Shown here: positions 4,493-63,399 of the stretch, in pieces
How the letters are laid out: each line of letters starts with the position of its first letter
Numbering within the stretch: the stretch's first letter is position 1
Assembly: GCA_973895155.1 (NCBI GenBank)
Contig: OZ316895.1
Location: 17,278,170 to 17,342,169, forward strand
Source: Marsupella aquatica
Taxonomy: Eukaryota > Plantae > Marchantiophyta
DNA: 64,000 nucleotides
Reading direction: 5' to 3'
Position numbers and translations under genes: made by a program
The notes under the pieces: model-generated
What the model was told of the DNA's origin: nothing
Seen by the model: the letters and a program-made list of their open reading frames with translations, nothing else
Databases searched by the model: none

Positions 4493-4984
4493 TGTCATTG
4501 CAAAACTCTTTCAGGAGAGTATGCACATGTGCAACATCCAATGAACACAACCTAGTAGTAGACAGATCCAATGAACACAACCTAGTAGTAGACAGAGGAG
4601 ATACGCCTTTCACCTCACTAGAGTCCCCGTCCATGGTAAGACACAAAAGCTAGAGTTATACTGAACTCTCAGCCCGTCAGTCATGTTGAGTCTCCAGTGA
4701 CTAAGCCCTTTCTATCTCCTAATTGTCCATGGTAAGACACAAAAGCTAGAGTTATACTGAACTCTCAGCCCGTCAGTCATGTTGAGTCTCCATTGACTAA
4801 GCCCTTTCTATCTCCTAATTGGCCCAGTAACAATGAGCCTTTGTTAGGGCCTAAGTTCTACTCACTAACTAAGTCCTGCTAGTGAATAGAGTAGTAGCAC
4901 ATCTAACCTTAACCAAGCACCTCAGTATGGTTAAACTAACTATGGTTACATAGTGTCTCTAGACCTAAGAGTAAATGTCTAACA
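4493..4984 (-). mobile_element. LTR of a decayed Ty3/gypsy element
   Basis: TG...CA ends on the minus strand (TGTTAGAC...ATGACA); homologous to 36890-37246 and 55019-55363 (shared AGGCTCATTGTTAC); integrase-tail remnant upstream at ~5460-5650. Confidence 0.65.
4536..4820. repeat. Two tandem duplications inside the LTR: 30 bp (4536-4595) and 96 bp (4629-4820)
   Basis: Directly visible near-perfect direct repeats. Confidence 0.95.
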
Positions 4985-5459
4985 ATATGTTGTTCTTGTG
5001 GAAGTGAGACCCCCGAGACCCCAAAAAACAGAGTGTGCCACTAGCTCTACAAATCCCCTGATCTAGGAGGATGGCATGCATGTTTGTTCCTAGAGGACTG
5101 ACCTTTGATCCATTACCAGCCCACGGCTTTCAAGTGGTGATCCTGGCATCTGTTTGGGCAGCTTCCGACACTGCAGTCAGAGTTTAAATACACTCTAGAG
5201 CTTCTGTTGGCACCTTACTTAGAGACTATGTGGCATCTTTTAATCCCATGCTTTAGATGATGGGATTTATCACTCTGGGTATCATTCCCACTGGCAGCGC
5301 ATATTTAAGTGAAACTCAAGAGATTCATGAGTTTATCTTCCTCTCTCATTTCTCTGGCTTAAAGGATCCTGGGCTTGTCCAGTTCCCATATTTTACCACT
5401 TTGCCACTAGACAGGTTATGTCCAAGCATTGTCCATACTTTTTGGGCCTCACAACTTTA

Positions 5460-29758: not shown

Positions 29759-32700
29759 TCACTCCCCTCCAGATTCTTCTACCGTTGTATCTGCAACTGG
29801 AGCTGTTTGGTTATCCTCCGTTTTGGCCTCGGTTGACTCCGGTTTGCTAGGAACTTCCTCGTCAGCAGCTTCAGCTTCAGCTTCAGCCTCAGCCTCAACT
29901 TCCTTTGCAGAATCACCTGCGTCAGAATCTCCTGGTCCTTCAACTTCCATCGGTTCAGCTGCCTCTTCGGCTTCAGGTTTCTCTGCCTTTTCAGCTGCTT
30001 CTGTAGTATCAGTGGCTTCTCCCTCAGGCTCTACTTCTGGCTCTACCTCTATCTCTGCTCCCTCTTCAGCCTCTTGATCCTCGTCTTCCTCCTCAACGTA
30101 CTCTGCAAGCCTGCTTACCTCTTGTCGGATCAGCAATTTCACGTGAGCCTTCTTCACACTTAGGTCAACGTTGAACTTCTCTTCTGTAGAGCCCCAAAGG
30201 TCCAAGACAGGCCAGTTGTTTAAGCAGATCAGAAAATTACAAACCATCTCTTGCAAGCAAATCTTTGCCAAAGATGACAACAGACAAATCTATTTAAAGG
30301 GCGAAAAATTTACAAAGAACGGCAAGTTTATTCCAGCGTATGGTCGTCACTGGTAAAATCTGTGGGCGCTTCACAATGAAATCTGGACCAGACAGTCCGC
30401 AGAGGGAGCTTACCCAATTTGACGACAATGTCCATGAAGGTAACCTACAAGAACCACGGACCAAATTGATTAGGAAAATGCACCGAGTTGCGTACGGTCA
30501 CAGGAAATAATCTAAGGTAATCTGCTGGAAGAAAACGTTTTTACATCTTCGTTTTAAAACCTACCTGGCTGAAGTCTGCTGAGCTGAGATCTTTAAGTAA
30601 GTCACGGATTTCATTTTGTAAAACTTCGTCGGAAGGGATTTCTGCAGTCTTCCTTTTCTTCACACGAGGTTCTTTCTCTTTTGCTTTCCCTGTCGGAGCA
30701 GACAAACATTCAACAGAGTACAACAACAAACTCCCTGTTGTTTTAAGTGATCGACGATACATACTCCATTCCATGTTCTTGTATTCTCTGAGTAACCAAA
30801 CACAAAACTGTAGTAGGAGTATGCACAATACGTCAATGCAAGTATTGCTCACCTCTTCCTCTACCCCTGCCTGACGGTTTCTCAGCACCCTTTTCCTTAC
30901 TGATTGACTTTTGTTTGCTCATTCGTTTCCCAGCTGGTTTTTCCTTCTCTTTCTCTTTCTCCTTCATTTCCTTGCTCTTCTTTCTAGAGCCTTTGGTGTA
31001 TACCTTCTCAGCTGGTTTTGATGAGCTTCTCGTGATGTCTGGAGATGATGGCATTGAGCTTTTCATATATGCACTTGATGTAGATTTTGGAGCAGACCGT
31101 TTTGCAGCCTGATCACCATCTGATTCGTCTTCATCGTTGGATACCTTCCCCTCAGCTGGCTCTTTGTCTCCCTCTTTTGATGACTTTGCAGGCTTCTTCT
31201 GAGGTTTCTTCTTTGCATCATAATCTTCATCATTAGCGTCGTCATCTTCGCCGTCATCATGGTCATCCATAAAAGTCAATCGTTTCCTTTCAACCTCCTC
31301 TTCTTCCTCCAGACTCTCATCATCGCTGTTTGCGTAATCTCCTTCTGTTTCCTCGTCAGTTTCGTTCTTCTTCCTCCTCCCTCTCTTCTTTGACGTGGAA
31401 TAATCCTCTGTTTTGTGCCGCTGAATCCAGCCCACAGACGTAAAATGATTCACGTATCAAAAGCAGTACTGACGTATTTTTTCAAAGTCAGGAACGTCAG
31501 AAGTTACGGGAGACGTTTGCACCCGAAGTAAAGCATTTTGTGAAGCTTTACTGAGTGTGCAAACGTCTCCCGTAACTGCACCACGTAACCAACGAGAGTT
31601 TAGTGAAAAAGCGAATAATGATCAATTATGCTACCTTTCTTCCAGGTCCTCTTCCTCTTCCAGGAGTTCTACCTTTCCGCTTCTTTTCCTTCAATCTCTG
31701 TAAACGAATAAGGATACACAATCAGCTCGAGCTGTTACTCAACCTCTATAAGACATGTTTGCAACGACATTGGCATTCGAAGCCAACTCCTAGTGCAACA
31801 AAATTATACCACTTCATACTAAGCATAGTCAGCATCACGGGGGATCTAGAGGACGCAACAATACAGTTATAATCAACAAGGTTTCTGCAATCTCAGGAAT
31901 GGACTTAGCTGACATTATAAAAAAAGTCAAGAATCACCAAGGGTAATGGCAAGTATGGATTGCCTGTTCGCGTTCTTCAATTGAGACCTCGGTTGTCTTA
32001 TGAGGTGACTCCAAGAACTCTAGAACTTTACCTACAAGCTCTTCCTGCATATAAGTTCACATAGTCCACCGTAAGTGAGGACGTAAAGATCATTTATCGG
32101 CACTCGCACGTGAAGGTTCTTGACAAACGATGCCTAGTGCAAATGTGGTCGATGCAAAGATAGCAGTACCTTCTTCCCAGTCTTGTTAAGATGAAGATCC
32201 AGCAAATCAATAAGTTGACCCAAGCCTTCCTTCGTAAACCTTTCCAGCTTCTCCCTCACTTTGGTCCTTTCCTTCTCCTGTTTGCAGGCAAACCTTCCGT
32301 TAGTTATCAATGACCGACAAGCGTCCGTGTATTCATCGAAGCGCTAAATAAATGCTTGCGCCAAAAGAGCCCAGTCTTTGTGTACGTCTTGCCAATAGTT
32401 TGGTGGTCCTCAAGGGACTATTGTTGCCTTCTCGAACAGATTCTACAATATCAGATGTAACGCCAACAACACACACCTCATTTTCAGCCCAGACATATCC
32501 TGAAAACCGGAAGATGTTGTGTTTGATGACAGTCGCCTGCGTCCAAAATGACAACAGAGACCAAAGTTATTAAGAGGATCAAAGAGAAAAGTATACAAGT
32601 CCACCGTCTAGCGTCACGTGCCTGTGACAATCGAGAGGGGAAAGAAACGCATTTTAACTCGGTAATCGAACGTTTGCGTACGAGTTCGCATGGTCCCGTT

Positions 32701-36450: not shown

Positions 36451-36889
36451 TAAAGCATTTGTCTTCGGTTGTACAAGTTACCTACGCTTAGGGATTCAGT
36501 CCATTCTCACATTTATGGAGATTCGAGGATGCTACTTTTTCTTCTTTCGAGAATAAATTTTCAAATGTGATGTCCCTTGGACAGATAAAACTTGCAACCG
36601 GGATGGCATAATTAATAACATTATCTGTGAGATTCCCCGATTCAGTTATAATATATGTGTTCTTCTATATGAGCGTAGTTTAATAATCCTTTGAGAAAAA
36701 AACTTAAAACTAAGCTCACATAGAGTTTATCTATCTCAGCCCTTGATGGGAATATTACTGGCCAGGATCTTTTAGTTCCTACCTGATATTAAGTTGGGTA
36801 TATTGATAAAATGAAAAATTTGCACTTTGTAACAGTACTCCCTCATCAAATCATTCATATCAAAAGCCTTTAGGGTTGAAGGGATAATT

Positions 36890-37700
36890 TGTTAGGTATT
36901 TACTCTCAGTACTAGCGTTACTATGTAACCATAGTCAGGTGTTTCATTATGGTTAAATGTGTTAGTACTATATTCACTTGCAGAATTTAGTTGGTGAGTA
37001 AAACTTAGGCTCATTGTTACAGAGTCAATTGCAAGATAGAAAAAGTTTAGTCTCTGGAGATTTGGTATTGCTACCTAGTTTAGATTTCTGTAAAGTTCTC
37101 GTGTTCCTGTGGGCTTGACCTCTGGTGAGGTGAAACTCCTATGTCAACTACTTGTGTGATTGTTGAATGTTACACATGTCAACTACTTGTGTGATTGTTG
37201 AATGTTGCACATGTGCATGCTGTCCTATAAGAGGTAGTCATTTACAAGGTAGTGACCATTAAGTGGTCAATGGTAATTTGGCATAGGGCTCTTGATTCAA
37301 ACAAAATAGGAGCAACCCATGTCATGCACTATCCCTTGACTAAATTCCATAGCCTGTTATAACTGTTAAGTATTGCTCTTAGTCTTGTGACTCATAGGTT
37401 ATGACAATTAGTCTAACCACAGTTAGAGACTTAGCTGAGGTTAAGTTAGTTGTAAATGACCTTGTATATACCAGGGCTAGTGTAAGCCACCAGTACATTA
37501 ATGCTTGCTTATTGTAACGACGAGATGTGTGGAGACAACTCTTGAAGTAAAGTTTTTCATGTTCGTGTGGACGTAGCCTTGGAGAAGAGGTGAACTGTGT
37601 ATGAGTCATGATCGTATCGTCATGAAGGAAGACTTCATAGTTCAACAATAACTTGTTTATAGCCCACTCACTTAGGGGTTTCACTATTTGAAAACCTCTC
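36890..37700 (+). mobile_element. Two adjacent LTR-family remnants (36890-37246 and from 37364)
   Basis: Begin TGTTAGGTATTTACTC and TGTTAAGTATTGCTC; similar to the reverse complements of 4493-4984 and 55019-55363; 35-bp tandem duplication at 37141-37210. Confidence 0.65.
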
Positions 37701-46796: not shown

Positions 46797-49700
46797 GGTC
46801 CACGAACTAATTAAGTTCTTTAAACCCCTATTGTCTTAAATTTGTTCAAGGACCCCTTGCTTACACAACATTGGTCAAGTTAGAGCACATTAAGAGTTTG
46901 TTTGTTATGCAAAAAGAACCAAACATAAATAATTATGCTTGGGGCAAGACAAAGGAAACAATATGTTTGAGCAAGACCAAAGAAAACAATTAAACCTAGT
47001 AAGTGTAAAAACAATGTAAATTTGAAAAACAATATTTCAAATAAACAAAGAATGGGTTATAATTGAGATATCATCCAATAAATTGTATGAGTTTTATCTA
47101 TATTCTGCAATTTTTTGAATTAACCATGGGTAGAGAAAAACTCTTCAACTATTGTAACATTTATCAAGGTAACATGAGAAACCCTTCCGCTACTATGGAC
47201 AGAGGGATACCAATACTATGGACAGAGGGATACCAAGAGAACATAAGAAACTTTAGATGACTATGGATGAAAGAATGAACATAAGAAACCCTTCAACTAC
47301 TATATTTTGCATAGGCTGTATGATGTGTGACATAGACTCTGTATGATTAGTGTGTGACATAGACTCTATGGACATAGGAGTACCAAGGGAACCGTGTACT
47401 TACATGTACTACTACCATGAATAATCTACTCTTTTTTCTGTCTCATCTCCATATTCAAACCTATTCTTGACCAATAGTGCTCATGTGGTTGCAGTGCTTC
47501 CAGGAATTTTGTGATGAGCTTAATTCGATGGGGGGGAGTCCATAATGAACACAAGACCCTGTCCTTCTATAATTGGGAGTCCTAAACTTCCAAATTTGAT
47601 GGACCTTAACCTAGTTGTTAAGGTAAAGGACAGAAACTTTACAGACTACTAAATTCATGATAGATAACTTTGGTCATGGAAGATTTGTCAGCCATGACCA
47701 TAAGTCACTCTAGAGGCTAGTGAAAAACAAACAAACTTTTAAATGACCCTGTGAAAAAGCTATGATAGCCAAAAACCATCATCCCTAACTATGAAAGGCT
47801 AGTGAAAAATAATCAACTTTTACATAACCCTATGCAAAGAAACTACGCCTTGATTTAAAGGAAATAAACTACATCTTGACATAATCATGAAACTGTCTTT
47901 TATTGGGGCATTATATCCCACAAGACTTATCCTATACTCAATTCCCTTAGTAAATTTTCTCTTTGTATTTTTCAGGGCATTCTGGGAACAGAACACCCCC
48001 CCCCCCCCCCAACAAAATCTGGATCACCTCTTTAGGAAGATTCTCCTCTACTTCACAAAATTTGAAAAAAGAAAAAATTTCTCAGGCCTTTAAGTGTACT
48101 AGTAAGGTCCTGCTTCTGGACAACTATGGGCAATAAGAGTCCCTCAAAACTTGAGTTGAAGCTTTTGTTAATTGGGAAGCTTTTCTTAATTCTGTACGGA
48201 ATGCAGGTTACGAGCATGTAACAATTTTGGGATGGGAGGCACCTGATATTCCTATAATCTGTTGCCCAGTAATAACATTTTTGTGTGTGCAGAAATTAAG
48301 TACTATAGAGGAGGTCTGGTCTGGGGTAGTAGCCTCCAAGATAGCTCAGAAAACCTTTCCAATTGCTGCTATTTGGGTTTTCTTCACTTTATGGTCATAT
48401 GGTTACACCCTGGTAACCCAGAACCTCCATTATCCTATATGTTTTTGGGGGCATTATCCTAAACTATAATACACAGTTGCGCCAAAAATGGTGTGATCAT
48501 CATTCAAATTTGGAGTGTCCTTTTGCGTGAGAAAAATTCAAACCTGTAAATATGGACTAATAAAAAGAAGAAAAAAAAAGGGAGAGGGAAATGAAGAAAC
48601 CAGGTACTGGCCCGGTATCTGGTGGCCCGGTATCCGGTGCACAAGGCAGGTACTCACAAGGCAGGTACTATTGTACCTGCAGGTACAAACATATGAACTC
48701 ATTACCCTTGGGAGCCTCATCAGGTACAAGGTACAAAGAATAGAGGTCATGTATGGAGGTACAGTTGTACCAGCAGAGTACAACTTTTCAGTGAGAGTGA
48801 GGAGCGTAACTTCTTTCATTTTGGAGTTTTGAGCTCTCTATTCCAAGCCTATGTGAACTCATAAGGGGCTCCTGCATTTAATGGGGGCTTTTAAGCAACA
48901 ACAACTTAATGAAGAATGGCCACTAGAGGGAGAGCAATGAGAGGATGAGGGAGAGTGACAAGGAAGCTACGATGACTCCTGAGACCCTTGCCCTCGCCTG
49001 GATCCAAACAACTAATTTTTTCCTTGGAACAAACAACTTATTTTTTAGGTGCAAACTTTTGCCAAATTACACCTCCCCAAAATGTGCTCACCACTTTTCC
49101 CGCCACTTTTGCCAAAAAATATTAACTTCTATAATAAACAGTTGCGCGCATTTTTGCAGTGGTCGTCGTTTTAAATTACCGGGGTTTTTTGGGTGACAAA
49201 AACCAGCACCGGGAAAAACGGAAGCAATAATTAGACCAAAAAAATCAGTTGCAGGGCTGCACGGCACTCTCTCCCTAGCGCTCCCATTCTCCCAAAGTTG
49301 CGGCCACTTTCTCCCTCCTTGGCCCGACTTGGAGCCGTTAAACACTAAACCCCCCACGTCCCGATGACGCCCCTTCTTTTGGTGCCTGGCCCTTTGCATC
49401 CCTCCCTTGGGCGCCCCTACTCCAACATCCCAACTCGCCAAGACACGGCCGTCAGCCCCCCGTCGACCAACGCTTGCATCCTACTCGCCCTCCCCCGCCT
49501 GGACCAACTTGCCTCCTCGACGCCTGACTCCTTGCCTCGACTCCCGACCAGGCTGTCACACCATTCTAGGTAGTGTTAGAGTGTATCATACTATCTAGAT
49601 CTGTATGTTTGGTATGTGTGCTATATGAGCCGATAAGGTTCCGTTAGGTTTGTGTGAGAGGGTACTTCTCTCTTGTGAGGCATTGAAAGGTTATCTTTCA

Positions 49701-50903
49701 ATGTTGAGCCGTGGAGAGGAGAGCTTTGTGTGGTGGCTATGGTGGCTGAGAGCTCTCTCTATGTAGCGTGGGGATTCCTTGAGTGCAAGGTGCGTTGGCT
49801 CGACATATGTGTGTGATCGGATCGGACGAGATTGAGTGCGTATTGTTGGCGTTGATGGTTGTTCCAATTGTATTGAGATTACATTGAAAGATCAGGCATC
49901 GAACTTTGCTGTTGTTGGACGGAGCTTCGATTTTCAGTTTGATTGTGTTTGGCGACGGTTCGTGGTATCTCGGATCATGCATCGTATTACTTTGATTGGA
50001 GCGCCGGTATGTGGATCCAAGTTGAGATCGTGTGAGTTTGATTATTGAGCAGATCTGGAGTTGGAGGTTCGGCAGATCTGTAGCCTGTATGCACAAATCT
50101 GTCCATAGGGTGCAAATCGTTTGTGTTCCTTGGTTGCAGATCGATGTTTTGAGTTGTATCGATTGGCTGCAAGCAGATCAGGGCGGTAACGTTCTATCCT
50201 GTGAAGCGGTGGCTGTTTTCTGTGAAGGAAACAATGTTTTGATGGTGCCATCGGTTGCAGATCTGCGAGTGCGCGGTTGCTATCTAGTTCGTCCGTATGC
50301 AGATCTGCGAGGCGCGGCCGTATTGTTGTCTAGTTCTTCCGTAGGGTGATTTGTGCGGACCGCGTTTGGTGTGAAGAAAGCAACTGTCCGCTGCTGCATA
50401 TGTTGCTGATTTTGTGCTCGGCTAAGTGTTGGTTGACGCAAAGTTGAGTTGCATTTCTTTGAAGACGTGTTTCTTTGAAGGAAACTGAGGGACTGAGTCC
50501 CGAATGTTGCGAGATTTCAACTGACGCTCGCTGCAGATCTGCATTTTGTGAAGATAGTATGTCGATGCGGTGGCAGCATCTATGGATACGAGGCAGATTG
50601 TTGCTGCGACAGACTGTACTTTGCCACATCGCCGATGTGCATTTCTGCGAAGGGAAATAGAGGGCGGAAGTCTAAATGTTGTCGAAACCCAAAGTCACAT
50701 CCGGCGTAGCGAAGCGTTGCGGGTGTGAAGGGCTCACTCTTTGGCTCATCTTGGCGTTTCGAGGCAACTCGTGGTTACTCAGGACGAGGGGCGTGAGGGC
50801 GGAGCAAGAGCGGGTGGGCCAGCAAGCCAGCTTGCTGGTAAGTGAGGAGTAGTTGCAAGCTATTGATTTTGGAGCGGCCAATTTAGTGCATAACTACAAG
50901 TGA

Positions 50904-50957
50904 GAGGTCACCCATCCCAAAACTATTCCTTCCCCACGCGCTTAACTATGTGGTTCT
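50904..50957 (-). pseudogene. 5S rRNA-derived internal promoter segment (A box to C box)
   Basis: Minus strand AGAACCACATAGTTAAGCGCGTGGGGAAGGAATAGTTTTGGGATGGGTGACCTC versus plant 5S AGAACTCCGCAGTTAAGCGTGCTTGGGCGAGAGTAGTACTAGGATGGGTGACCTC (recalled consensus). Confidence 0.7.
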
Positions 50958-51708
50958 TAAGTGCTTTTGTGTACACACACTCCTTTCCACTTTGAAGGGA
51001 GCACTTAGGCATTTTATACATATTCTGGTTTGTTTAAATTGTCATTTTGGACCAAATCATAAGCTCTCTAAAGGTTTTTGATGCTTCTGAATCCATCTAG
51101 ATGCATGGATTGAACCAATTGTGCATGGATCCTTAGCTACGACATTGAACGTTGAGAGGCCTATTATGAAGGCCCTACATTGAATATTATGAACATTGTT
51201 TGATTGATGTATGATCACTGCTGATGTGGAGAGTTATTGTGGATCTCTTCTTATTGATTGGATCCTCTCCATATATGCTTCCTGTTTATGCACCAGGTTA
51301 GTTTGGCGTGAGCACTTGATTCTATAGGAGTGATCCGGGTTTGCAACCAGACATTCTAGTTGTGCTACGTATTTCTCTCTTGGTGATGTTGGAGTGATGC
51401 CCAACACACCATGGTGAGTGCTTGTGTTGCTGACAAGGATAAATTGCCCTTAGGATTAGCATATAGATTAGGTTAGGTTGGTCACCACGGATTCTTCTGG
51501 TGCTACTGGGTTACCCAATGGACGACGGACCGGTTTCACGCGGAGTGGGGCACAATTTTGGCCAGCAACATTGGTAGCAGTCAGCAGCACAGCTTTAGAC
51601 AATGATTCTAGCGAGGACTCTGTGACCAGTTCTTCTCATCATTAGGTGATTGCACCTTTGTTGTGGGATATGGAAGAGACGTATGGGGCTACAAAGGGCC
51701 CATGACAA

Positions 51709-52340
51709 TACTCTGGTGCAATTGGCATGATTGATCTGGATGACTTCATCCAGGATTTTGATACGTGGTGCGATATGTAGACATTGCGTAACGCCACGTT
51801 GTTTACCCCTTTCATGGCATGGAAGAGATTATTTTAACATTTAGAGGGGCCACCCATGGATGACTACCATGACTTCCGGAAGGCTCATTTGGTTGAGATT
51901 GAGGTATGGAGGCAGCATTGGTCGCCTAATTACGTGTCCATCACCTATGGCACTAGTGCGGCTGCTCAACCCATTGTCATAGTTGCTGCTTCTTCTAGCA
52001 GCACTAGCCAGAGTGACACACCATCCACCTCAATATGATGAATGAGAAGGTGGTGACTTTTGGATTTGCCAAAGAAGCACCAAAGGCTGCATCTACATCC
52101 ACACCATAGCCTACTGCACGAAAGAGCCAAAGGGAGAAGCCTACTGCACAAGAGTCTACCAGCCAGAGACCTGTCAGTGCCCTCTTACGCTGGACAAGTC
52201 AGGATGTTGGACCTGTGGTGGGGATCATGCACAGAGAGATTGCCCAGATCATAGAGGATCAAGGGGAGCATCAGCGCCTGATCAGCGACAATGTGATCAT
52301 TGTAGAGCTCCTGGACACACCAAGGATAGGTGTTTCTCAC
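51709..52340 (+). pseudogene. gag: Gag with two zinc knuckles
   Basis: LDDFIQDFDTWCDM*...HLEGPPMDDYHDF; CWTCGGDHAQRDC (52205-52243) and CDHCRAPGHTKDRC (52292-52333). Confidence 0.85.
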
Positions 52341-52699
52341 TCCATCCTGAGTTACGGAGAGGAGGACCCCGTACACATGATCAGGGAAGAGAAGGCGGAG
52401 GTAGAGGTGGTGGGACGTGGTCGTGGCATGCCACATGCAGGGAGAAAGGGAGGTGACGCTGCCCCTGTTGTAACCATAGATCCAAAGGATGCTAAGATTG
52501 CTCAATTGGAGCAACAGCTAGCTTCCATGGCTAGTTCCTAGGTGAGACCTATTTTGGGTGATGGGGCATCTACATCCTACGGACCTTCCACATCCCATGG
52601 TCCTTCCACATCTTATGGAGCTGATGGAGACCTTGCCACCATGGGATTCATGTGTGGCACTACGCATATTGATGCATCAGCAGCTTTGACACGAGTGGT

Positions 52700-54290
52700 G
52701 GCCCTCCCACCACGTGCCCGTCCAAACTCGTTTCTCAGCCTTGAAACAAGTTGAACCTTGCACTAACACGGAATGTTGGGGCAAGTTCTCTCCGACTATA
52801 CTCCTTGTCGTTAGCAACCCCTCCCATATGAAGCTGCACTTGCCCTCGTCAGCACAACCGTCGCTCAACGGTCTTTGCTATCTGTACAAGCAATCAACCA
52901 ACTGGTAAGAACCCGTCTTGATCTTGGAACTCCCAAGACCATTATCGTGCATCAAGCTCAACAGTCATTATTAAGTAGGTCAGCGGATAGAGCCTCCCAG
53001 GCCCGCATGGCCTTGCCATAAGCTAAAACTAAGGTCGGCATCATTGTTCGTCTGGAACAGTCTATCTACCAGATGTCGCCCAAGCTTCCCCACTTTATAC
53101 CCGTCAATGGCTGACCGCCCTGCCTCCAGGACATGCCCATGGCCCAAACTTAGTTTTTCACAAACTAGTAGTAACACGTCGGGACCATTCGATTTCTAGA
53201 TCTTAGCCACCTCTCGGCAAAACCGGATTCCGCTCAACCTCTCACCATGCATTGGGACCAGATCTCAACGACAGCCCCCAGAGTCTACTTGGTTCTACCT
53301 CTCCAACATCAGGTCCCCGTGGGAACCAAATGCGGTCTGGTCACTGTTCAACTTTGGATCGGCAAGAGGGACTCCCCCCATTGCAAGCCTCAAAACCAAA
53401 ACCATCCAATGCACAATCAGAGAGCACCATGAGGTAGCCTTCTTCATTAGCTTTCCAACGAGCCCAAGAACTCCCCCAACGGAGATCCGGTCGTCGAGTT
53501 ATGCTTGTTTCCGCTTCAAAACTCGAAACGATATATCTTCGTCGATCGCGATCAGCTCGAGCTCAAACTTGAGAGGACCACTCCCCTCATATATGATTCT
53601 GGGGACCTGCCACCCCGGACCAACTTTGGTCCCCTATCTTTGGCCCCCTACCCGAGGGCCCGTGGGCCCCGTCACTTAGCTCGAAATGAAGATAATCGAA
53701 AACCTTCCGTAACTTGGCCTTGAGCATAAATTGTGGCATAGGGGGCTAAAAGTTACGGCCCTAACCCGGCTCTGGTCCAGGCAACCCCCTCTTGGTCCAT
53801 CGATGCACGGCGACTCTAATCGAGTCTAAATCGGCCATAACTTTTGGCCCCTAGGTCCGTTGGCCAAAAAATATGCGGCCCCATGATCGGGCTCATGTGG
53901 GGCTTCTTGGGCCCCTATGGTGATCCGTCGGAAAAATAGTTCATTTTTCCATGATTGGCAACTGACCCAAACTACAAGTATGCGGCTTGAGTTGGCCATA
54001 ACTTTTGGCCCCTCGGTTCGTTGGCCGAGAAACATGCGGCCCCATGATTGGGCTCATGTGGGGCTTCTTGGGCCCCTATGGTGATCCGTTGGAAAAATAG
54101 TTCATTTTTCCTTGATCGGCAATGGGCCCAATAGAGTTAAATTGGAGCGCGCTTTTTTTTAGTCTTGTCCTTGCTCTTACTAGCCTCCTCTTTGTTAGTC
54201 GCATCCCTAATGGCCATGACGGTAGTAAATCTAAGAGGGGCTCAACGTTGGAGTTAGGCAACGCCGGATCAATTACAAGTAGGTGAAAGT
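52700..54290. mobile_element. Nested foreign insertion(s) in gag-pol, including a 161-bp-period duplication (53833-54121) and an inverted motif at 53740-53761
   Basis: Interrupts pol-like coding; GGCCATAACTTTTGGCCCCT repeated and present inverted. Confidence 0.6.
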
Positions 54291-54859
54291 TGTATTCGCG
54301 ACTACACGTGGGGCAGCCAAAGCTCTTGAGCCCCGGGGAGCAGTAGTGGAGCTAGATCCACAGAGAGGGGATGCACGTCGGCAGACAAAGCTTCCTCACT
54401 CTTTCACATAGTCAGAGACAATGCAGACTGCCTCTATGAACCCGGTTCAGACAAACCCTAGTCGGGGTAAGTTGGCAAAATCAGGTAGTGATGAAGTAGG
54501 GGTGACAGGTACCCTGCTGGGGGCGGCTACTACCAACTAGCGCACCCCATTATTTTCAGTGACAAACATGCTGAACTTGGGAGTTGGTCCTGCAGAAGTG
54601 TTCAGATTGGCAGCTATACTTTGTGAGACAGGACACTCCAGTTGTTGCTTCCCATGCAGAAGCAACTTGTAGGGTTGAAGCAGTGAAGACCATGCCACCT
54701 ACTGCTACTACTGAGACATGGCATGCAGCAGCATGGTTGGTGGTTTTACCAGCACGCCCTGCAATTGAGAGCACTAGTTTTAAACCTAGTGTTGTGTCAT
54801 TGGATAATCGGAGTGGTATCTTTTGATTATCCAATGGGCCTTCTGGAGCAGTATACCAG

Positions 54860-55540
54860 CCAGAGAGAATATTATTGGATACTGGTGCTCAGGCCTTGAT
54901 GTTGGGAAAGTTTACCATACGTGGATTGGGATTGCTTCTAGAGGATTTGGAGGATTGTCTCTTTCCCATTCAGACTTCATTGGGGGACCTACACCTACAC
55001 AGCATATCAGTAGGAGACTGTTGAGCATAGACAACATTTGCAACGGCAAGCCCATGAACCATCCAACGCACAAGAGTCGACACAGAGAGATACGTGGTTC
55101 ACCTCCACATGAGACTACATCCACGGGGACACACAAGAGCTTTACTGCACTCTAGGGCGACCGGTCATACTAAGCATCCACAGCTCAAGCTCTCCCTATC
55201 TCTCAACTAGCTCTGTAACAATGAGCCTAAGTTCCATCCAGGGTTTGGCATCAGCCCTGGCTATATGCACAACAACACTACCGCTAACATTAGCTAAGTC
55301 CTAACCCAAGTTAGACTAACTGTGGTTAGCTCATGAGTCACAAGACTATAGCAATATCTAATAGAGACCACTTGATTTGAGGATTCAAGAAGGTCATGCT
55401 ACAGATAGCTCACAGATACAGGCGCGAGCTATTTTGACTAAGGCAGAGTCATATGATGTGTTGGTGGGATGTACGATGCTCTACCCCATGGGATTTATTC
55501 TTGATTTTTGGGATGAATCAGTGTCATATAGACCTGATTG
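54860..55540 (+). pseudogene. Aspartic protease domain split by a solo LTR
   Basis: ILLDTGAQ (DTG at 54878-54886) and, after the insert, YDVLVG. Confidence 0.85.
55019..55363 (-). mobile_element. Solo LTR, 345 bp, with 5-bp TSD GAGAC
   Basis: GAGAC at 55014-55018 and 55364-55368; excision restores ...QHISRRPLDLRIQEG; homologous to LTRs at 4.5 kb and 37 kb. Confidence 0.9.
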
Positions 55541-55940
55541 GCAGTCAGGAGATGCTCGATTGAGCAGGTTGCCAGTGAGATTTAGTGGACCTGTGGGAGG
55601 CCCTAAATCCACACTCTTGTCTTTGGCATCATTCAGTGGTGTAATTACTAGACCTGATGATTTGATTGAGGGTAATGCGCATGCAACAGATGTTCCACCA
55701 TTGGAGGAGTCACATGAGGAACAGATCATGCAGGGATTACCTGTTGGCAGTGTGGCGCCACCAGTGTGGGGCACTGGACAGGCCTTGCCACAGGAAGCAG
55801 CACGATTGGTACATGACGCATGGCGTCATGCTTTTACTCCACAGTCAGGAGCAAAGCAGTCTCTTCCAGATGGACCGGTAACTCTTTCACCATTGAATAC
55901 CACTCCTATTGCTTGGCAGTATCCACCAGAGGGTATTTGC

Positions 55941-56870
55941 TTGTTGGATCTATTTGGTGGGATTAGTACTAGATTGGCTGTTGCTCTTCAGGCAGGAATT
56001 CCTGTGCATTGCTATTTGTATGTGGAGACAGATGAGATAGCACGGAGGGTCTCATTGCGGCATGTGGCTATGTTGGTGGATAGATATCCATAGTTGCTGC
56101 CAGTGGATGTTGTTTGTGGTTATCAGCATGCACTACCTGCTGATATTTCATTGCTGGGGGCGGATCATCTGCATCATGTTGATCCCATTGATTTGGTGAT
56201 TGTTGGTTGGCCATGTTAGGGCCAACCAACAATTGGTGTTGGGCATGGACTTCATGATCCACGCTCTGCATTATTTTGGAAGATGTTACGGGTGCTGCGT
56301 CATCTCCAGCTACATCAGACACAGTCTCCAACATACATTTTGGAGAATGTACCATTATTAGGTGACGATCGTAGTCGGATTGTTGCCAGTGTTCACCAGG
56401 TGAGGTCTTGGATGGACCTGCTGTGTTATTGGATGCTGCACGTGTGGGTTCTCGTGCACATTGTCCATGCTTGTGGTGGACTAATTTGATCTCATGTGAG
56501 GTGCTGAAGCGCGCATTTGACAGCATTCCACGCTCACCAGCCTTAGTGGTGGATGATATTTTGGATCCAAGGCGTTGTGCACAGCGTGTGACCCAACCTG
56601 ATAGACCTCCATTGGCAGTGGTCAATGCAATTGGGCGCCCATGTTGTGCGTTACCCACTCTTGTAAGCCACTCTGCTTCATATACATTGAGAGCAAGTGG
56701 CCCTGGACTTGTGTGCGTGGGACACAACTCTCCAGTAGTTAGTGGAGCCTACTGCTGATGAGAGGGAGCGTGCTATAGGATTTTTGACAGGCACCACTGT
56801 AGTTGCCTCGGTCCTTGGTCAAGCAATGGATTTGAACTATTTGACTTGGATTGTCAGCTTGGGAGTAGCT
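55941..56870 (+). pseudogene. C5-cytosine DNA methyltransferase domain (DNMT3/DRM-like) within retrotransposon pol
   Basis: Motif I LDLFGGIS (from 55944), IV GWPC (56205-56216), VI ENV (56343-56351), VIII RAHCPCLWWTN, IX ERERAIGF, X LGQAMD, in canonical order; N-terminal part in frame with the protease. Confidence 0.9.
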
Positions 56871-57239
56871 GAACAGTTGCGGATGCGCTCTGCTAGTGTT
56901 ACTGATCGTCCATTAGTGAGCTTGCGGTCCATTGAGACAGTGATGACCACAACTTGGGACAACAGTCCATGGACCTATGGAAGGATTGGCCAAGGCTGGA
57001 CAGATTGTTGAGCATGAAGGGACTGCTCAATCTACTGCTAAATAGCAATCATCGACTATCTCTTCTACCCTACAAAGAGATATTAGGGATTTGGTGGAGA
57101 GTTGGGAATCACAGCTTGGCCCTAAGTTGACAGGGGAGGAGAGACGTCGCATGCATCAATTCTTGAAGAGTTACTGGAATTGTTTTGCATTTAGCATGAA
57201 GGATTTGGGGACATTAAGGGCCCTGGTATTCAGATTGAA

Positions 57240-58530
57240 TTGGCTAGTGATGCGCCAATCTTTCGTAGACCATACCATTATAATGACATGGAGAGAGCTC
57301 TGATTCAAAGCAGAACTCAAGATTTGTTGGAGGCTGGATTGGTGGAGATTTCATATGGGGAGTATGCATCTGCCACAGTGATGCCAGCCAAGAAAGATGT
57401 GCATGGCAATTACACAGATAGACGCATGTGTGGTGATTACAGACCTATTAATCGCCACACAAAATCTGATCGATATGCCATGCCCACACCTAAGGAGATC
57501 TTTGATGCTGTGGGGCATGCAAAGGTTTTCAGTTCATTGGATCTTAGGACAGGGTACCATCAACTTCCAATTAGGCATGCTGACAGGTCCAAGATAGCAT
57601 TCTGAGGATTGATTCTTATGGCAAAGATCGTTTGTATCAATGGTTGTTCTTACCATTTGGGTTGAAGAATGCACCAGCTGAGTTCCAGAGAGTCATGGAT
57701 CGAATCCTCGGAGGTTTGGATTTTGTTAGATGTTATATTGATGATATTCTGGTCTATTCTTCTACTGTGGAAGAACATCAGCACTACTTGCAGATTGTGT
57801 TGGAGAGATTGAGAGCACATGGGTTGAAGCTCCATCCTGGCAGCCAAGTGTAAGTTCTTCCAAGACCAGATTGAGTATTTGGGCCACACTATATACCCAG
57901 GGGGATTGGGTGTACAACAGACTAAAGTGGAGGCCATTACACAGATTTCTCATCCTACTGATGTGAGCAGAGTTCGTGCATTCTTGGGATTGGCGAGCTA
58001 CTACAGGAGGTATGTTAAAGGATTTAGCCAGCTTGCTAAACCTTTAACCATACTCACTAAGTTGGATCAGGAATGGACTTGGGGTGAACCAGGAGCATGC
58101 CTTTCAGGAGTTGAAGCAAAGGTTGGCATCATCCCCTATTTTGAGAAGACCCATTTCAGGTAGACCATTTCAGCTACACACTGATTGGAGTGGAGTAGGA
58201 CTTGGAGCAGTGCTGACTCAGAAGGATGATGAAGGGCATCAGGTTGTTGTGGCTTATGCCAGTAGATCAAACAATTCAACAGAGGCTAAGTACAGCTCTT
58301 ATGAGGGAGAGTGTTTGGCAGCAGTGTGGGCTGTGGCACACTTCCGTTGTTACTTGTTTGGTAATCCTTTCACTTTGATCACTGATCATCAGCCTCTCAA
58401 GTGGTTAATAGAGTCTGACAAGCTTACTGGGAAGCTTGCAAGATGGGCATTGTTGTTGCACAAATATGATTTCCAGGTTGTACATAGACCTGGAAAGGTA
58501 AACTTGGATGCAGATGGGTTGAGCCGCAAC
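57240..58530 (+). pseudogene. pol: Reverse transcriptase and RNase H
   Basis: RMCGDYRPIN, LDLRTGYHQ, LPFGLKNAP, YIDD (57734-57745), LHTDWSGVGLGAVL, ADGLSR. Confidence 0.95.
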
Positions 58531-58899
58531 CCATGTACCAGTCAGCAGGATGAGACTGGAGCCAGATGGCATGATGAGTCAGATAAGGAGATGGTGTCAG
58601 GATGACATGCATCTGTCTTTCTTTGTTGGGTGCCAGCATACAGTGGATCTGTGGACTCTACCTCATTGGATGGAGTGGATGATGAGTCTTCAAATGTGGA
58701 TGCTAGTGAGGTAACTTCTGGACAACAAGATATTCACAATGATGTGAGAGTGTTGGAATATCTGCGTAGTGGTTCTATTGTTGGCAGTGTTGATGCCAAG
58801 GAGCATGACAGGGTTTTGCAAAGAGCCAAGAGGTTTCGATGGGAAGGAAACCATCTTCTGAGAGTACTGCATGATGGTAGGGTGTTGGTGGTACCAAAA

Positions 58900-60162
58900 C
58901 CATCACAACGAGTACATTTGGTGCGACATGCGCACGAGGAGTTGGGTCACTTTGGTGTGAAGCGCACTTATAGCTTGGTGTAGACACAATATTGGTGGCG
59001 TGGTATGCACACTCATGTCCAGCGGTTGATAGCTAAGTGTGTGGTATGTGATAGAGTGAGAGCATCATTTAATGCTCCCACTCCCTAGTTGCACCCGTTA
59101 CCGATCATGGGTTTGGGATATCGTTGGAGTTTGGATTTTGCTGATCCATTACCTCTTACCCAACGTCATAATCAGTATGTTTTGGTCATGGTGGAGCACT
59201 TGTCCAAGTGGATTGAGCTAGTGGCGTTGCCAGATAAAGCCAGTGGAGGAGTTGCTGCTACATTTTTGGATTGTGTACTTAGTCATTTTGGAGCACCAGC
59301 TGAGGTGTTGACTGATCAGAGAACTGAGTTCCGTGGAGAGTTCAAGAGTTTGTGTGAACGAGCTCTAATTGATCATCGTACTACCTCTCATGATCATCCT
59401 GAGCCAGATGGATTAGTTGAGAGAGTTGTGCAAACTTTGAAGAGAGGATTGCGTAAGTATGGCTTGCATCTGGGAGATTGAGATCTCTAGCTACCTTGGT
59501 TAGCTATGGGTTATCGTTTTAGTCGGCAAGCATCACTTGCATCCTTCTCACCTTACTTTTTACTCGATGGTAGAGAGCCAGATTTGCCAACAACTATTCG
59601 TCGTGATGCTGCATCAGTTGTGAACTTGGATGATCCTGATGTTTGGGTCAAGGTGTGTTCAGAGAGAGCACGGGTATTTCAACAAGTGATGCCCATGGCT
59701 TTTGACAACCTTGCCATTGCCCAACATCGTGATACTTTGAGGTATGCCACTATTCGTGGAGGAGGTTATCGTGCAAGCATTTGATGATTTCATCCTGGTG
59801 ATTATGTTTATTTGTAGCAGACAGCATCCACGACACTTGATGTGACCGCAGACCGGACAATCTTACGTGTGCATGAAGTGTTGCCTTCTGGTGTCCTGAT
59901 GTTGGAGGGGCGCGATGGTATGGTTTGGAAGGATCATGTGCGCAATTGTGCACCATGTCACCTTCCCAACATTGATGGTACAGTAGATCCAAGCCTGGCA
60001 CATGTTCGTGCTAGCTTGAAATATATGTTGTGTGGATCTGCTCAGGGAGCAGCTACTATGTTGATTTGTGATAAGTGTTCTAGAGGATGGCACATGTCAT
60101 GTTTGACACCACCATTGTAGGTGATTCCTAGTGGATCATGGTTGTGTCCTCAGTGTCGATGA
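58900..60162 (+). pseudogene. Integrase (HHCC, DDE) with C-terminal PHD finger
   Basis: HEELGHFG...CVVC; SLDF, LTDQ, GLVER; PHD YMLC...MLICDKCSRGWHMSCLTPPL*VIPSGSWLCPQCR* at ~60020-60162. Confidence 0.9.
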
Positions 60163-60470
60163 ATCCGACTAGTTATCAGTTGTGTTCTCTTGGAAGATAT
60201 GGATTGCAGGTTGGTGATTGATGGGCTTCACTTGCACCCGACCTCCTGATCTTCACACCTAACAAGGTGTATATCAACCTTGTAGAACTCATGGCTAGCT
60301 AGAAGGGGACCTTACTCCCAGCTAGGGGGGCGATTGTGGGTTTTGGACATGTGTGGACATGAGTTCCACTTGTATTCCATTCTCTTGTGTTTGTGATGTG
60401 GCAGTGTGACTATGTCTGGATGTATGTGACAAGCAATGTATGTTGTGTAACGATGTGTATGCGCACGACA

Positions 60471-62336
60471 AGGCTCCCAACTCGCGACTGCCTTCCTTGA
60501 CTCTCTGCCACCCCCTTGCCTCGACACCCAACGCAACTCCTTGCCTTGAGGCTTGCCTCAAACCGGGCCTCAAACTCAACTCCCTCCCTTGAAGCCTGCC
60601 TAGCCTCAAAGCCCTGCCTCGACGCTGCCTCAAAGCCCTGCCTCAACTCCCTGACTCACAAGTCAACTCCCGACTCCCTACGACGATAAGGGGGCAACAA
60701 GGGAGCAATGAGGCAATGATTGGGACCAGCCTGGGGTGGGAGCGACGGAGGGAGCCTTGATGGAGGGAGTGACAAAGGGAGCGACTCGGAGGGAGCAACG
60801 ATGGAGAAGCAAGCGGAGAGGGAGCAACGATGGGTGACAACAAGGGAGTGATGACAGGGGAGAGCAACAAGGGAGCGGTGACAATGACAAGTCTGGGGAC
60901 AACCCTGGCCCTTGCCTGGACCCAACATCCCGGGTGGAATGAAACTCGAGACCCCAGGGTCCCATCCCCAACCCTAAGTCAAATTCATGCCCCGGGTTCC
61001 AACTCCCCGACAAGCCCTTGGTTGCCATGATCACTTGCCACCCTATTTAGAACTCAAATACGCATGGGTTGGGGTCCAAACCATCGGGACCAAATGTGGT
61101 CCAGGGCGCAATGTCCTCAGAAGTATATATGAAGGGACCACCTCTTCTCAAATATCCAATTATATTGAACGGACAGTTTTACAAACCACACCACCACCCC
61201 AAGGGTGCATGGTGTTCGAGAGTAAGGAGCCAAGTAAATTTGGATGCGGTTACCAAAGGGGTTCCATGCAAAGGGTAGGAAAAGGTCTGTTGAAAAGTGG
61301 GCTGAGTTGTGCTGTTGCCCCAAGGGGTTGCAGCATTGGGGCAGCTAAAAGCCAAGTAAGCAACCTAGGGCGACTTTAAGAAATTAAACTAAGCTTAAAG
61401 TAACAAAAATTGGGGTTTGAGGATGTAAGTTGTGACCAAAAAGGGCTGTTGAAAAGTCAGCCAAGTTGTGCGGTCGCCCCAAGGGGTCTTGGCATTGGGG
61501 CGGCCAAAGCTAAGTAAGTGATTGGGGGCAACTTTAACCAAAATTTGGGTTACCAATGGGATTCCAGGATGCAAGGGGTAGGAAAAAGAATCATTGAAAA
61601 GTCAGGCAAGCAGTACCATTATCCCGAAGGGCCTTGGCATTTGGGCAGCCAAAGCCAAGGAGGTGGTCGCAACGATTTTAAGTTCAAAAGCCTATAGTAT
61701 CCAGAAAGTTGGGCTTACCAATGGGGTTTCAAGATGCAAGGGGTAGCATAACGACATCATTGGCAGCACAACATCTATTTCCTTGACGATGACTTCTTAC
61801 TTGATGACATATTGGGCAACACAGCATCCCTTTTCTTCACAACATCTTTTATCTTAATGACATCTTGAGCCATGACATCTTGGGCGCCACAATATCTTTT
61901 TTTATTAACGACATCTTGGGCGACACAACTTCTTTTCTCTTAACACAACATCTTAGGTGACACGACATCTTTTTCTCTATCATAATGACATCCCGGGCAC
62001 CACAACATCTTTTTTATTAATGACATCTTAGGCAGGACAACTTCTTTTCTCCTAACACAACATCTTAGGCGACTTGACATCTTTTTCTCTATGACATCTT
62101 GGGTGACACGACATCTTGGGCGAGACTACATCATTTTTCTCAACAACTTCTTGGCCGACACAACATCCTTTGTCGCAACCACTTCTTGGCCGACACAACA
62201 TCTCTTTTCTCAATGGCATCTTGGCCGACACGACATCTTTTTTCTAAATGACATCTTGGCCGACACAACATCTTTTTTCTAAATGACGTCTTGGCTGACA
62301 CGACATCTTTTGTGCAACGCACGGGTATTGAGCTAG
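60471..62336 (+). mobile_element. Non-autonomous Helitron-like 3' portion with internal tandem repeats
   Basis: Ends TGTGCAACGCACGGG-TATTGAG-CTAG|T (CTAG at 62333-62336); ~170-bp degenerate repeats at 61250-61750. Confidence 0.65.
61750..62310. repeat. Degenerate minisatellite, ~37-bp unit GACATCTTGGCCGACACAACATCTTTTTTCTAAAT
   Basis: More than 10 visible copies of the ACATCTT core, becoming more regular toward the 3' end. Confidence 0.9.
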
Positions 62337-63236: not shown

Positions 63237-63399
63237 ATGGCCGCGGTTTCAGCTACGATCGTGGGTGCTGCTCTCGGATCCGTTGCGTCGCGCCGGACGG
63301 CTGCAAGCCAGGTGGGGATCTCGACCGGAGGCCATAGCCAGTGCTCTTTGAGAGATTCGAGGCCTGTTCGGTGCCGTTCCCCAATTGTTTCCAGTTCAG
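63237..63399 (+). CDS. First exon of a probable plastid-targeted protein (partial)
   Basis: MAAVSATIVGAALGSVASRR... Ser/Ala/Arg-rich transit-peptide-like sequence; donor CAG|GTGGGT; (TTG)n tract in the 5' UTR. Confidence 0.6.

Follow-up and report, generated by a model that had tools for sequence, protein, structure and literature searches.

How does a retrotransposon in a liverwort come to carry a cytosine methyltransferase together with a PHD finger, and what might it use them for? The question is raised by a 64,000-nucleotide stretch of Marsupella aquatica DNA (contig OZ316895.1, positions 17,278,170 to 17,342,169 of the forward strand), which is called the window here and is numbered from its first letter. 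A preliminary description, made from the letters alone, had placed a Ty3/gypsy retrotransposon with both domains at 54860..60162. The core of this interval is right, but the true extent is larger: positions 49554-60470 are one degenerate Ty3/gypsy element with the order gag, protease, C5 methyltransferase, reverse transcriptase (RT), RNase H, integrase and PHD. The description had also missed a conserved stop between methylase and RT, split repeats at the two ends and a putative self-priming site. Taken as a whole, the evidence is on balance best explained by a defunct Gypsy-DNMT3-PHD element from a line of vertical inheritance, in which the polymerase would be made by readthrough of the stop and the methylase, produced at the level of Gag, would likely mark the complementary DNA (cDNA) before integration.

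The domains were read from the three-frame translation of the forward strand, on which all of them lie, and from Pfam profiles run on the separate broken pieces. The hallmark order of Ty3/gypsy elements, with a DDE integrase after RT and RNase H, is present, and the profiles match strongly for RVT_1 (E 1.7e-18), RT_RNaseH (E 9.9e-37) and rve (E 2.7e-12). RNase H is found at 58090..58560, and the integrase, with its HHCC zinc finger, DDE core and C-terminal region, at 58750..59960 (Integrase_H2C2 and rve). TG...CA termini, a polypurine tract and a 4-bp target-site duplication are all present. What is absent is the pair of twin direct-repeat long terminal repeats (LTRs) that would flank the coding part; a repeat unit A stands at the left end and a unit B at the right end, and the two share no repeat. 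No Pfam match to a tyrosine recombinase, a trait of DIRS and Ngaro elements, was obtained in the 18 window pieces scanned, and an rve integrase and an aspartic protease are present instead. Likewise, the chromodomain of chromoviruses has no Pfam match at the integrase C-terminus in the window or in relatives. The PHD finger that had been claimed there (60024..60162, including the ORF2 stop) scores above its Pfam cut-off (E 3.5e-6, 27.4 bits vs 24).

Is the domain after the protease indeed a methylase, and of which kind? It occupies 55923..56876, and the motifs of C5 methyltransferases appear in the canonical order as first described, i.e., I (LDLFGGIST), IV (GWPC) and VI (ILENV), then, past frameshifts, VIII, IX (ERERA) and X (LGQAMD). 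The C-terminal half of the protease with its linker (55365..55922, from translation and alignment with a relative) is in the same frame, and this half and the motifs share one open reading frame (ORF), 55365-56093, so the methylase does start in the protease frame. On single broken pieces of the window the Pfam DNA_methylase profile stays below its cut-off (E 0.0098). The uninterrupted relative P0001, which aligns along 55365-57042 with 65-79% identity per segment, passes with 46.1 bits vs a cut-off of 22, and 12 of 17 relatives match this family at E<=0.01. A profile of 46 domains of the family, compared with solved structures, ranks DNMT3A, DNMT3C and DNMT3B best (E 3.6e-28), the DRM-type entry 4onj reaching 4.9e-14 and M.HhaI 1e-9, and P0001 alone likewise ranks the three DNMT3 proteins far ahead of DRM-type and bacterial enzymes. 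The structure model of a natural methylase domain, that of L003 (L numbers denote metagenome loci), has a predicted local distance difference test score of 96, and only DNMT3 chains were among the matches listed by Foldseek for this model (template modelling scores 0.72/0.84). The motifs run unpermuted from I to X, without the DRM-type order of VI-X followed by I-V, which together with these rankings upholds the earlier assignment as DNMT3-like and not DRM. By sequence and model the methylase is of DNMT3 type, a placement made by ranking against solved structures.

The next question is whether the domain would act as an enzyme. Its catalytic Cys, the Glu of motif VI and the residues of motif IX are invariant across 46 aligned domains that share 31-70% identity. 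The ratio of nonsynonymous to synonymous substitution rates (dN/dS) is 0.146-0.179 in five between-family pairs, with dS near saturation; dS is saturated in four pairs with L019, one within-family pair of decayed copies gives 0.66, and RT-RNase H gives 0.08. Judged by these ratios, the methylase is under purifying selection. A metagenome scan reduced 154 candidate stretches to 74 loci, and in 48 of 50 the methylase comes after the protease, both exceptions being without RT as well; since patterns of the protease or the methylase were used to pick the loci, any member of the clade that has no methylase would escape, and the count of 38/38 RTs with an upstream methylase, biased in this way, is not used as support. 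Other observations weigh against an active enzyme that marks its own element. The isolated domain of KnitGypsy-Dnmt3, a gypsy element of Klebsormidium nitens, gave no methylation in yeast, in what is the sole published test of this class and one that its authors call inconclusive in the accessible text (PMC5890265). Motif IV is WEC, not WPC, in 55 of 136 family domains. The observed/expected CpG ratio is 0.34 within the element, 0.57 outside it and 0.27-0.78 in relatives, and CpG depletion was dropped as proof of self-methylation because it is indistinguishable from host methylation. The yeast result and the WEC motif would suit a methylase that is carried along without catalytic use, or whose role is nucleic-acid binding rather than methylation, and a one-off captured host fragment might also be considered. 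Such explanations appear very improbable, as the invariant residues and the purifying selection speak against the former and the 48 of 50 loci exclude the latter, making the methylase a family trait. The two refutations that the preliminary description had allowed for, a family without the segment and a segment that does not match C5 methyltransferase profiles, both failed.

The methylase had been described as lying in pol. It does lie between protease and RT (57046..58085, YIDD, frameshifted; Pfam RVT_1), but a conserved stop at 57043 parts it from the latter. This end of ORF1, UAG-CAA-UCA (57043..57051), is exactly where P0001 ends, and the Marchantia proteins P0002, P0006 and P0008 and the Calypogeia protein P0009 also end at the matching place. 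Both domains are found in 38 loci, 36 of which have a linker of <700 nt (L001 and L058, with linkers of 1218 and 1252 nt, are left out); merging seven near-identical pairs gives 29 distinct loci, the codon index of L062 and of L019 having been adjusted manually. The matching codon is TAG in 16, TAA in 11 and TAC in 2, hence a stop in 27 of the 29, most of the counted loci being of one family, and the stop frequency at any other of the 80 codons examined is at most 4/29. The next codon is CAA, again in 27 of 29. Four divergent families (the window, L003, L019 and the L002 type) keep the stop in frame with RT though their linkers are 390, 432 and 510 nt long. In L003 and the window a conserved N-terminal stretch of RT precedes the first in-frame AUG, and these 50 codons have dN/dS of 0.2-0.3 or saturated dS. 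The idea that the stop arose at a hot spot of methylation, by a change of CAG into TAG, was rejected with CAG in 0/29 loci and the low background of stops. The window and L003 have the exact motif UAG-CAR-YYA, which is the type I readthrough signal of tobamoviruses (PMC3542737, accessible part). It is likely, on this comparison of sequences, that ORF2 is made by readthrough of the conserved stop. Among LTR retrotransposons, readthrough is known for a few, such as RIRE2 and the env of SIRE1. Because the stop is placed after the methylase, readthrough would yield as much methylase as Gag, with RT, integrase and PHD made as the extension.

Several points count against readthrough and the dosage that it implies. 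CAA is followed by CCC, not YYA, in 24/29 loci, and the stop is TAA rather than TAG in 11/29. A downstream stem-loop is predicted in 6/6 sequences but is weak (z -0.65 to -2.7, covariation -0.4 kcal/mol). Fusions of methylase and RT with no stop occur in Closterium P0101 and also in P0028, P0130 and P0150, and these relatives imply that a Gag-level dosage of the methylase is not needed family-wide. In the commonest family an AUG lies three codons past the stop, which would suit re-initiation at a downstream AUG. Splicing is another way to make ORF2: the Marchantia gene models P0003 and P0042 splice across the stop, and many ORF2 proteins are annotated on their own. Yet the AUG is not kept in the window, L003 and L060, the frame is maintained over linkers of unequal length, and P0003 and P0042, both of them predictions, splice differently. 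Readthrough is the preferred explanation for ORF2, and the alternative is taken up again below with the repeats to which it is joined.

How does an element without twin LTRs end? In the window, unit A, which is LTR-like and starts with TGTCA, occupies 49554..49878 on the forward strand; its start is set by the sequence and the target-site duplication, and its right edge is approximate. The polypurine tract with its spacer (60325..60334), of which the same G-run stands ahead of B in related loci, is followed by unit B (60335..60470, TGTGG...CACGACA), a 72% match to the related B and the right end of the element. The whole, from TGTCA at 49554 to CACGACA at 60470, is bounded by identical copies of AGGC (49550..49553 and 60471..60474). 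In related loci, unit A measures 333 bp and forms the left end, and unit B, of 112 bp, comes after the polypurine tract; the window's A resembles theirs in position and length, though its DNA is not alignable to theirs. An exact 4-bp duplication is found in 7 of 10 two-ended copies (the window and six related loci). No 5' A is preceded by B in 20 distinct loci, and the right end is always B. After B comes flanking DNA in nine distinct loci and the window, which is of the short form A-coding-B, and A in four. All three of the loci that continue beyond B-A read A-TTTT(C/T)-A(G/A)T-B, i.e., B-A-B; A-coding-B-A-B is complete in L047, B-A-B is seen in L050 and L064, and B-A runs to the contig end in L011. 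At the A-B junction, the predicted right terminus of the cDNA, which reaches to the primer site, meets the predicted left terminus, which begins past the polypurine tract. This left terminus, AGT-B, has other partners as well, namely a retained primer site in L025/L028 and a truncated RT in L041/L055. The integrated ends are the two halves of a CA-NN-TG site, nearly palindromic, that lies where B meets A.

We suggest from this arrangement that the integrase would open the internal CA-NN-TG site, and several points weigh against this proposal. The duplication does not hold up in L071, those of L040 and L041 have one mismatch each, the end structure is based on one related family and the window, and the form A-B-A-coding-B, which the circle model predicts, is found in 0/20 loci. 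The short forms could instead have come from later B-B recombination. The lack of the A-B-A-coding-B form fits a DIRS/Ngaro-like alternative, in which the split repeats are copied from RNA spanning A-coding-B-A-B, the short forms arise by B-B recombination and ORF2 is made by splicing or re-initiation as discussed above. De Mendoza et al. indeed compare such repeats to DIRS (PMC5890265, accessible text). Templated copying leaves unexplained the three different right-hand partners on one AGT-B end at the edge of the polypurine tract, and a tyrosine recombinase has no match in the window pieces scanned, whereas a 4-bp duplication is present. We hold this combined alternative to be improbable, at well under even odds. 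Collapse in the assembly as the origin of the short forms is also unlikely, since the paired repeats of L047 differ by 6-8%. Three aberrant copies (L041:7290-7420, L055:5360-5490 and L025:11600-12520) have a matching or near-matching target-site duplication where both ends are present. The proposed cut site (window 49554-49562 and 60462-60470) holds a CpG, CACGACA in the window and TGTCACGA in L064, often as the deamination product; this CpG is possibly a target of the element's own methylase.

For priming, the window has no tRNA-type TGG site after A. Instead, a putative self-priming site at 49881..49892 is a perfect 12-nt complement of 49693..49704 within A, the predicted 5' end of the transcript and its own primer, both on the forward strand. 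Complements of at least 11 nt occur in 0/500 control windows. The same arrangement, in other sequence, is seen in 11/20 related loci, and in the related family the complement maps to the central part of A, some 26-30 nt downstream of a TATA. A predicted fold of the RNA 5' end pairs the primer with the site (overall z -0.9). Two observations weigh against self-priming: a 9-nt complement is missing in 7/20 loci, and unit A of the window has no TATA where one would be expected. Priming by tRNA was rejected, with no TGG site and no tRNA gene in the window. The arrangement is what self-priming of the Tf1 type would lead one to expect.

How old is this combination, and how far does it reach? A search with the ORF 55365-56090 on the methylase side matched 17 proteins, 12 from Marchantia, two from Calypogeia and three others, so the presence in land plants that had been proposed is supported. 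An invention by early land plants is not, as the design is shared with elements of Closterium, Coleochaete and the Klebsormidium type. The metagenome loci have the order gag-knuckle, protease, methylase, RT, RNase H, integrase and PHD, and PHD follows integrase in all 18 loci that reach far enough. Relatives on the RT side come from Calypogeia, Riccia, Marchantia, Coleochaete, Closterium and Klebsormidium. In a tree of 126 RT-RNase H sequences, which had no outgroup and was rooted at the midpoint, the window falls together with Marchantia, Calypogeia and the loci (support 0.98) within a clade that includes Closterium and Klebsormidium (0.965). Two K. nitens RT-integrase(-PHD) proteins, P0051 and P0088, fall in the window's RT clade and could stem from KnitGypsy-Dnmt3 or from another element; protein searches recovered no K. 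nitens methylase sequence. A complete RT-RNase H-integrase-PHD ORF of this clade (P0020), near the bryophyte branch, is present in a transcriptome assembly of Coleochaete scutata. A further sublineage, in which Calypogeia is represented, groups with a protein that fuses methylase and RT with no stop (proteins P0085 and P0130); from these sequences, liverworts may hold both the stop and the fused layouts.

A search of 1.84 billion representatives found a sister clade (P0158-P0287, P0303) in which the methylase lies between RNase H and integrase. Its order is RT-RNase H-methylase-integrase-PHD, with all five domains in 32 of 150 representatives. The clade is large and diverse with one named member, from the chlorophyte Hariotina reticulata, and its methylases, often with WEC in motif IV, form a clade of their own. 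No description of this layout was found in the literature searches made. The methylase tree (136 sequences, near-duplicate proteins omitted) and the RT tree split alike, and the view of the lineage as old and vertically inherited in the green lineage is part of the overall explanation favoured above. Among viral contigs there were two pattern matches, neither a relative. Matches were found in 17 sequencing runs, none recorded as RNA. The contigs of four runs cover methylase and RT alike over 55900-57500 (1731, 3882, 157 and 36 pieces), and among the matches listed most run contigs are without the internal breaks of the window copy, with nothing firm on the stop at 57043.

What would the PHD finger read? 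The solved PHDs nearest to the family are those of CHD4, PHF12, ATXR5, KDM5A/B and PHF21A. Those of CHD4, ATXR5 and PHF21A and PHD1 of KDM5 prefer histone H3 that is unmethylated at lysine 4 (H3K4me0). At what we take to be the cage position, none of 112 scored PHDs has Trp. The integrase PHD thus compared probably binds the unmodified H3 tail. A writer of DNMT3 type with a reader of H3K4me0 type resembles cellular DNMT3 with its ADD domain, writer and PHD occur together in both large clades, and in the sister clade the methylase stands immediately before the integrase. These likenesses would suit the same element with a different use, in which the methylase is brought with the integrase-PHD complex and acts on insertion-site chromatin or on host DNA in trans. 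In the window's clade, stop, RT and RNase H lie between methylase and PHD, and between the clades the methylase shifts its position while the PHD stays on the integrase, which fits independent modules. Furthermore, because the stop puts the writer in ORF1 and the reader in ORF2, in unequal amounts and with separation by the protease, the earlier idea of writing where the PHD chooses becomes less direct. Such an action on chromatin or host DNA seems unlikely, if somewhat less so than the DIRS/Ngaro-like alternative, and marking of the cDNA is preferred.

Put together, the favoured life cycle would run as follows. A transcript would be made from A, and its 5' end would fold onto the site after A and prime itself, a step that we consider likely. 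Low-rate readthrough of UAG-CAA would likely give Pol, and the protease would release the methylase. Ordinary LTR-type synthesis, the LTR being B+A, may well yield B-A-coding-B-A, with the methylase marking the cDNA, which could plausibly pass as host DNA or insert pre-silenced. The integrase, with comparable plausibility, would open the internal CA-NN-TG site between B and A, and the ends would not be trimmed. If both sites are cut, or if a one-LTR circle is used, the result would be A-coding-B, as in the window; if one site of an end-joined circle is cut, it would be A-coding-B-A-B. The latter would be the only form with a second A for strand transfer, and hence able to copy itself again. 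Finally, and more tentatively, the PHD on the integrase might steer insertion away from promoters marked by H3K4me3.

Much of the core is known. KnitGypsy-Dnmt3, a gypsy element with DNMT3, is described as an acquisition of the K. nitens lineage in the accessible text of PMC5890265, and streptophyte Gypsy-DNMT3 elements are also mentioned in PMC12344493 (accessible part). The window family shares with it the gypsy domain set, a non-permuted DNMT3-type methylase under purifying selection and, by the legend of Fig. 4, the DIRS-like split repeats A-coding-B-A-B. KnitGypsy-Dnmt3 has its DNMT in one ORF with RT and RNase H, whereas the window family has the same frame with the conserved stop between; moreover, the window family reaches liverworts, Closterium, Coleochaete and moss-like loci. 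The term PHD does not occur in the accessible text of PMC5890265, though the domain may be drawn in Fig. 4c, and that text proposes no priming or integration mechanism. The earlier picture of a self-contained write-and-read system in an early land plant was overstated in this respect too, since retrotransposons with a writer and a reader have been described before. EpiLTRs are LTR retrotransposons with a cytosine methyltransferase and a chromatin reader (bioRxiv 10.64898/2026.05.21.726589, accessible part); they differ in having a DNMT4-related enzyme, Dam and a chromodomain, occur in Cymbomonas and Euglena, and are separated from Gypsy-DNMT3 by their authors. PHD-bearing retrotransposons, including the REM1 gypsy-type element of Chlamydomonas, are cited in PMC6673714 (accessible part), and a PHD finger on a gypsy-type element is what the window shares with REM1. 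REM1 reportedly encodes its PHD, along with a chromodomain, on an antisense ORF of its own and has no methylase.

The mechanisms have precedents too. As far as PMC6317226 is accessible, Tf1/Sushi and Tcn1 share with the window the lack of a tRNA primer site and a sequence after the 5' repeat that complements the predicted RNA 5' end, but have ordinary twin LTRs, chromodomains and no methylase; the trees made here include no Tcn1 sequence. A polymerase made as an extension is shared with tobamovirus type I readthrough and gammaretroviral gag-pol, and the window's motif is exact with AA before it (PMC3542737, accessible part); unlike these, the window's stop comes after protease and methylase, not after gag, and most relatives have CAA-CCC. 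The integrases of HIV-1 and foamy virus cut palindromic 2-LTR circle junctions (PMC1905944 and PMC4372172, accessible parts). In both cases a DDE integrase opens a palindromic CA...TG in closed DNA before integration, as proposed for the window, but there it is a side route restoring normal ends, whereas a regular cut inside the LTR with permuted repeats is proposed here. A literature search, with most subscription papers and Repbase outside its reach, found nothing on the occurrence of the family in land plants or on its stop, priming and route of integration. The core idea of a gypsy element carrying DNMT3 is already published; the stop, the ends with self-priming and the sister-clade layout are the unnoticed features.

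The window copy itself is dead, as had been said. Stops at 56091, 56217 and 56736 and frameshifts near 56414 and near 56715 break its methylase, and eight codons are deleted ahead of motif X; RT, integrase and PHD also carry breaks. An internally deleted gag remnant with two CCHC zinc knuckles (51670..52700, forward strand) was found by tblastn with Marchantia P0002 and P0332, P0002 matching at 71% over residues 1-94 and 57% over the knuckles. The first of two nested insertions is unrelated DNA that interrupts ORF1 at 52700..54282 (edges approximate), with P0332 residues in register on both sides and a 161-bp repeat pair inside. The gag-protease linker and the N-terminal half of the aspartic protease (LLDTG) follow at 54283..55018 (translation, Pfam and tblastn). 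The second insertion, of 345 bp and solo-LTR-like, splits the protease at 55019..55363, has a 5-bp duplication GAGAC and is related to window 37002-37443. It belongs to another repeat family with three related pieces in the window, the others being 4481-4985 and 36889-37443. Just 3' of the element are tandem arrays with units of about 35 nt (61806-62311) and about 150-165 nt (61248-61762). Elsewhere, 63238-63330 is a probable host-gene start, with an N-terminus that by eye is Ala/Ser/Arg-rich and transit-peptide-like, and 31502-31577 is an imperfect palindrome of 76 bp.

What does this mean for the family? It is conceivable, though we advance it with reserve, that there is a green-lineage-wide clade without ordinary LTR ends, in which elements prime themselves, the cDNA ends are joined into a circle that is routinely opened inside the LTR, a Gag-level DNMT3 marks the cDNA, the CpG of the cut site included, and the PHD avoids active promoters. 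The permuted ends would mean that a DDE integrase cleaves internally as a rule and not by accident; they also explain why finders of LTR pairs miss this clade. The conserved stop predicts a dosage, with the methylase at the level of Gag and integrase-PHD scarce. In Marchantia, at least 12 of the annotated proteins represent fragments of this element, and several carry the label of a methyltransferase. De Mendoza et al. leave the role of the captured DNMT3 open and treat the gypsy case as a Klebsormidium peculiarity in the accessible text (PMC5890265). Since the family is present in Marchantia, which is genetically tractable and for which methylase mutants exist, the question of what the methylase does becomes testable.

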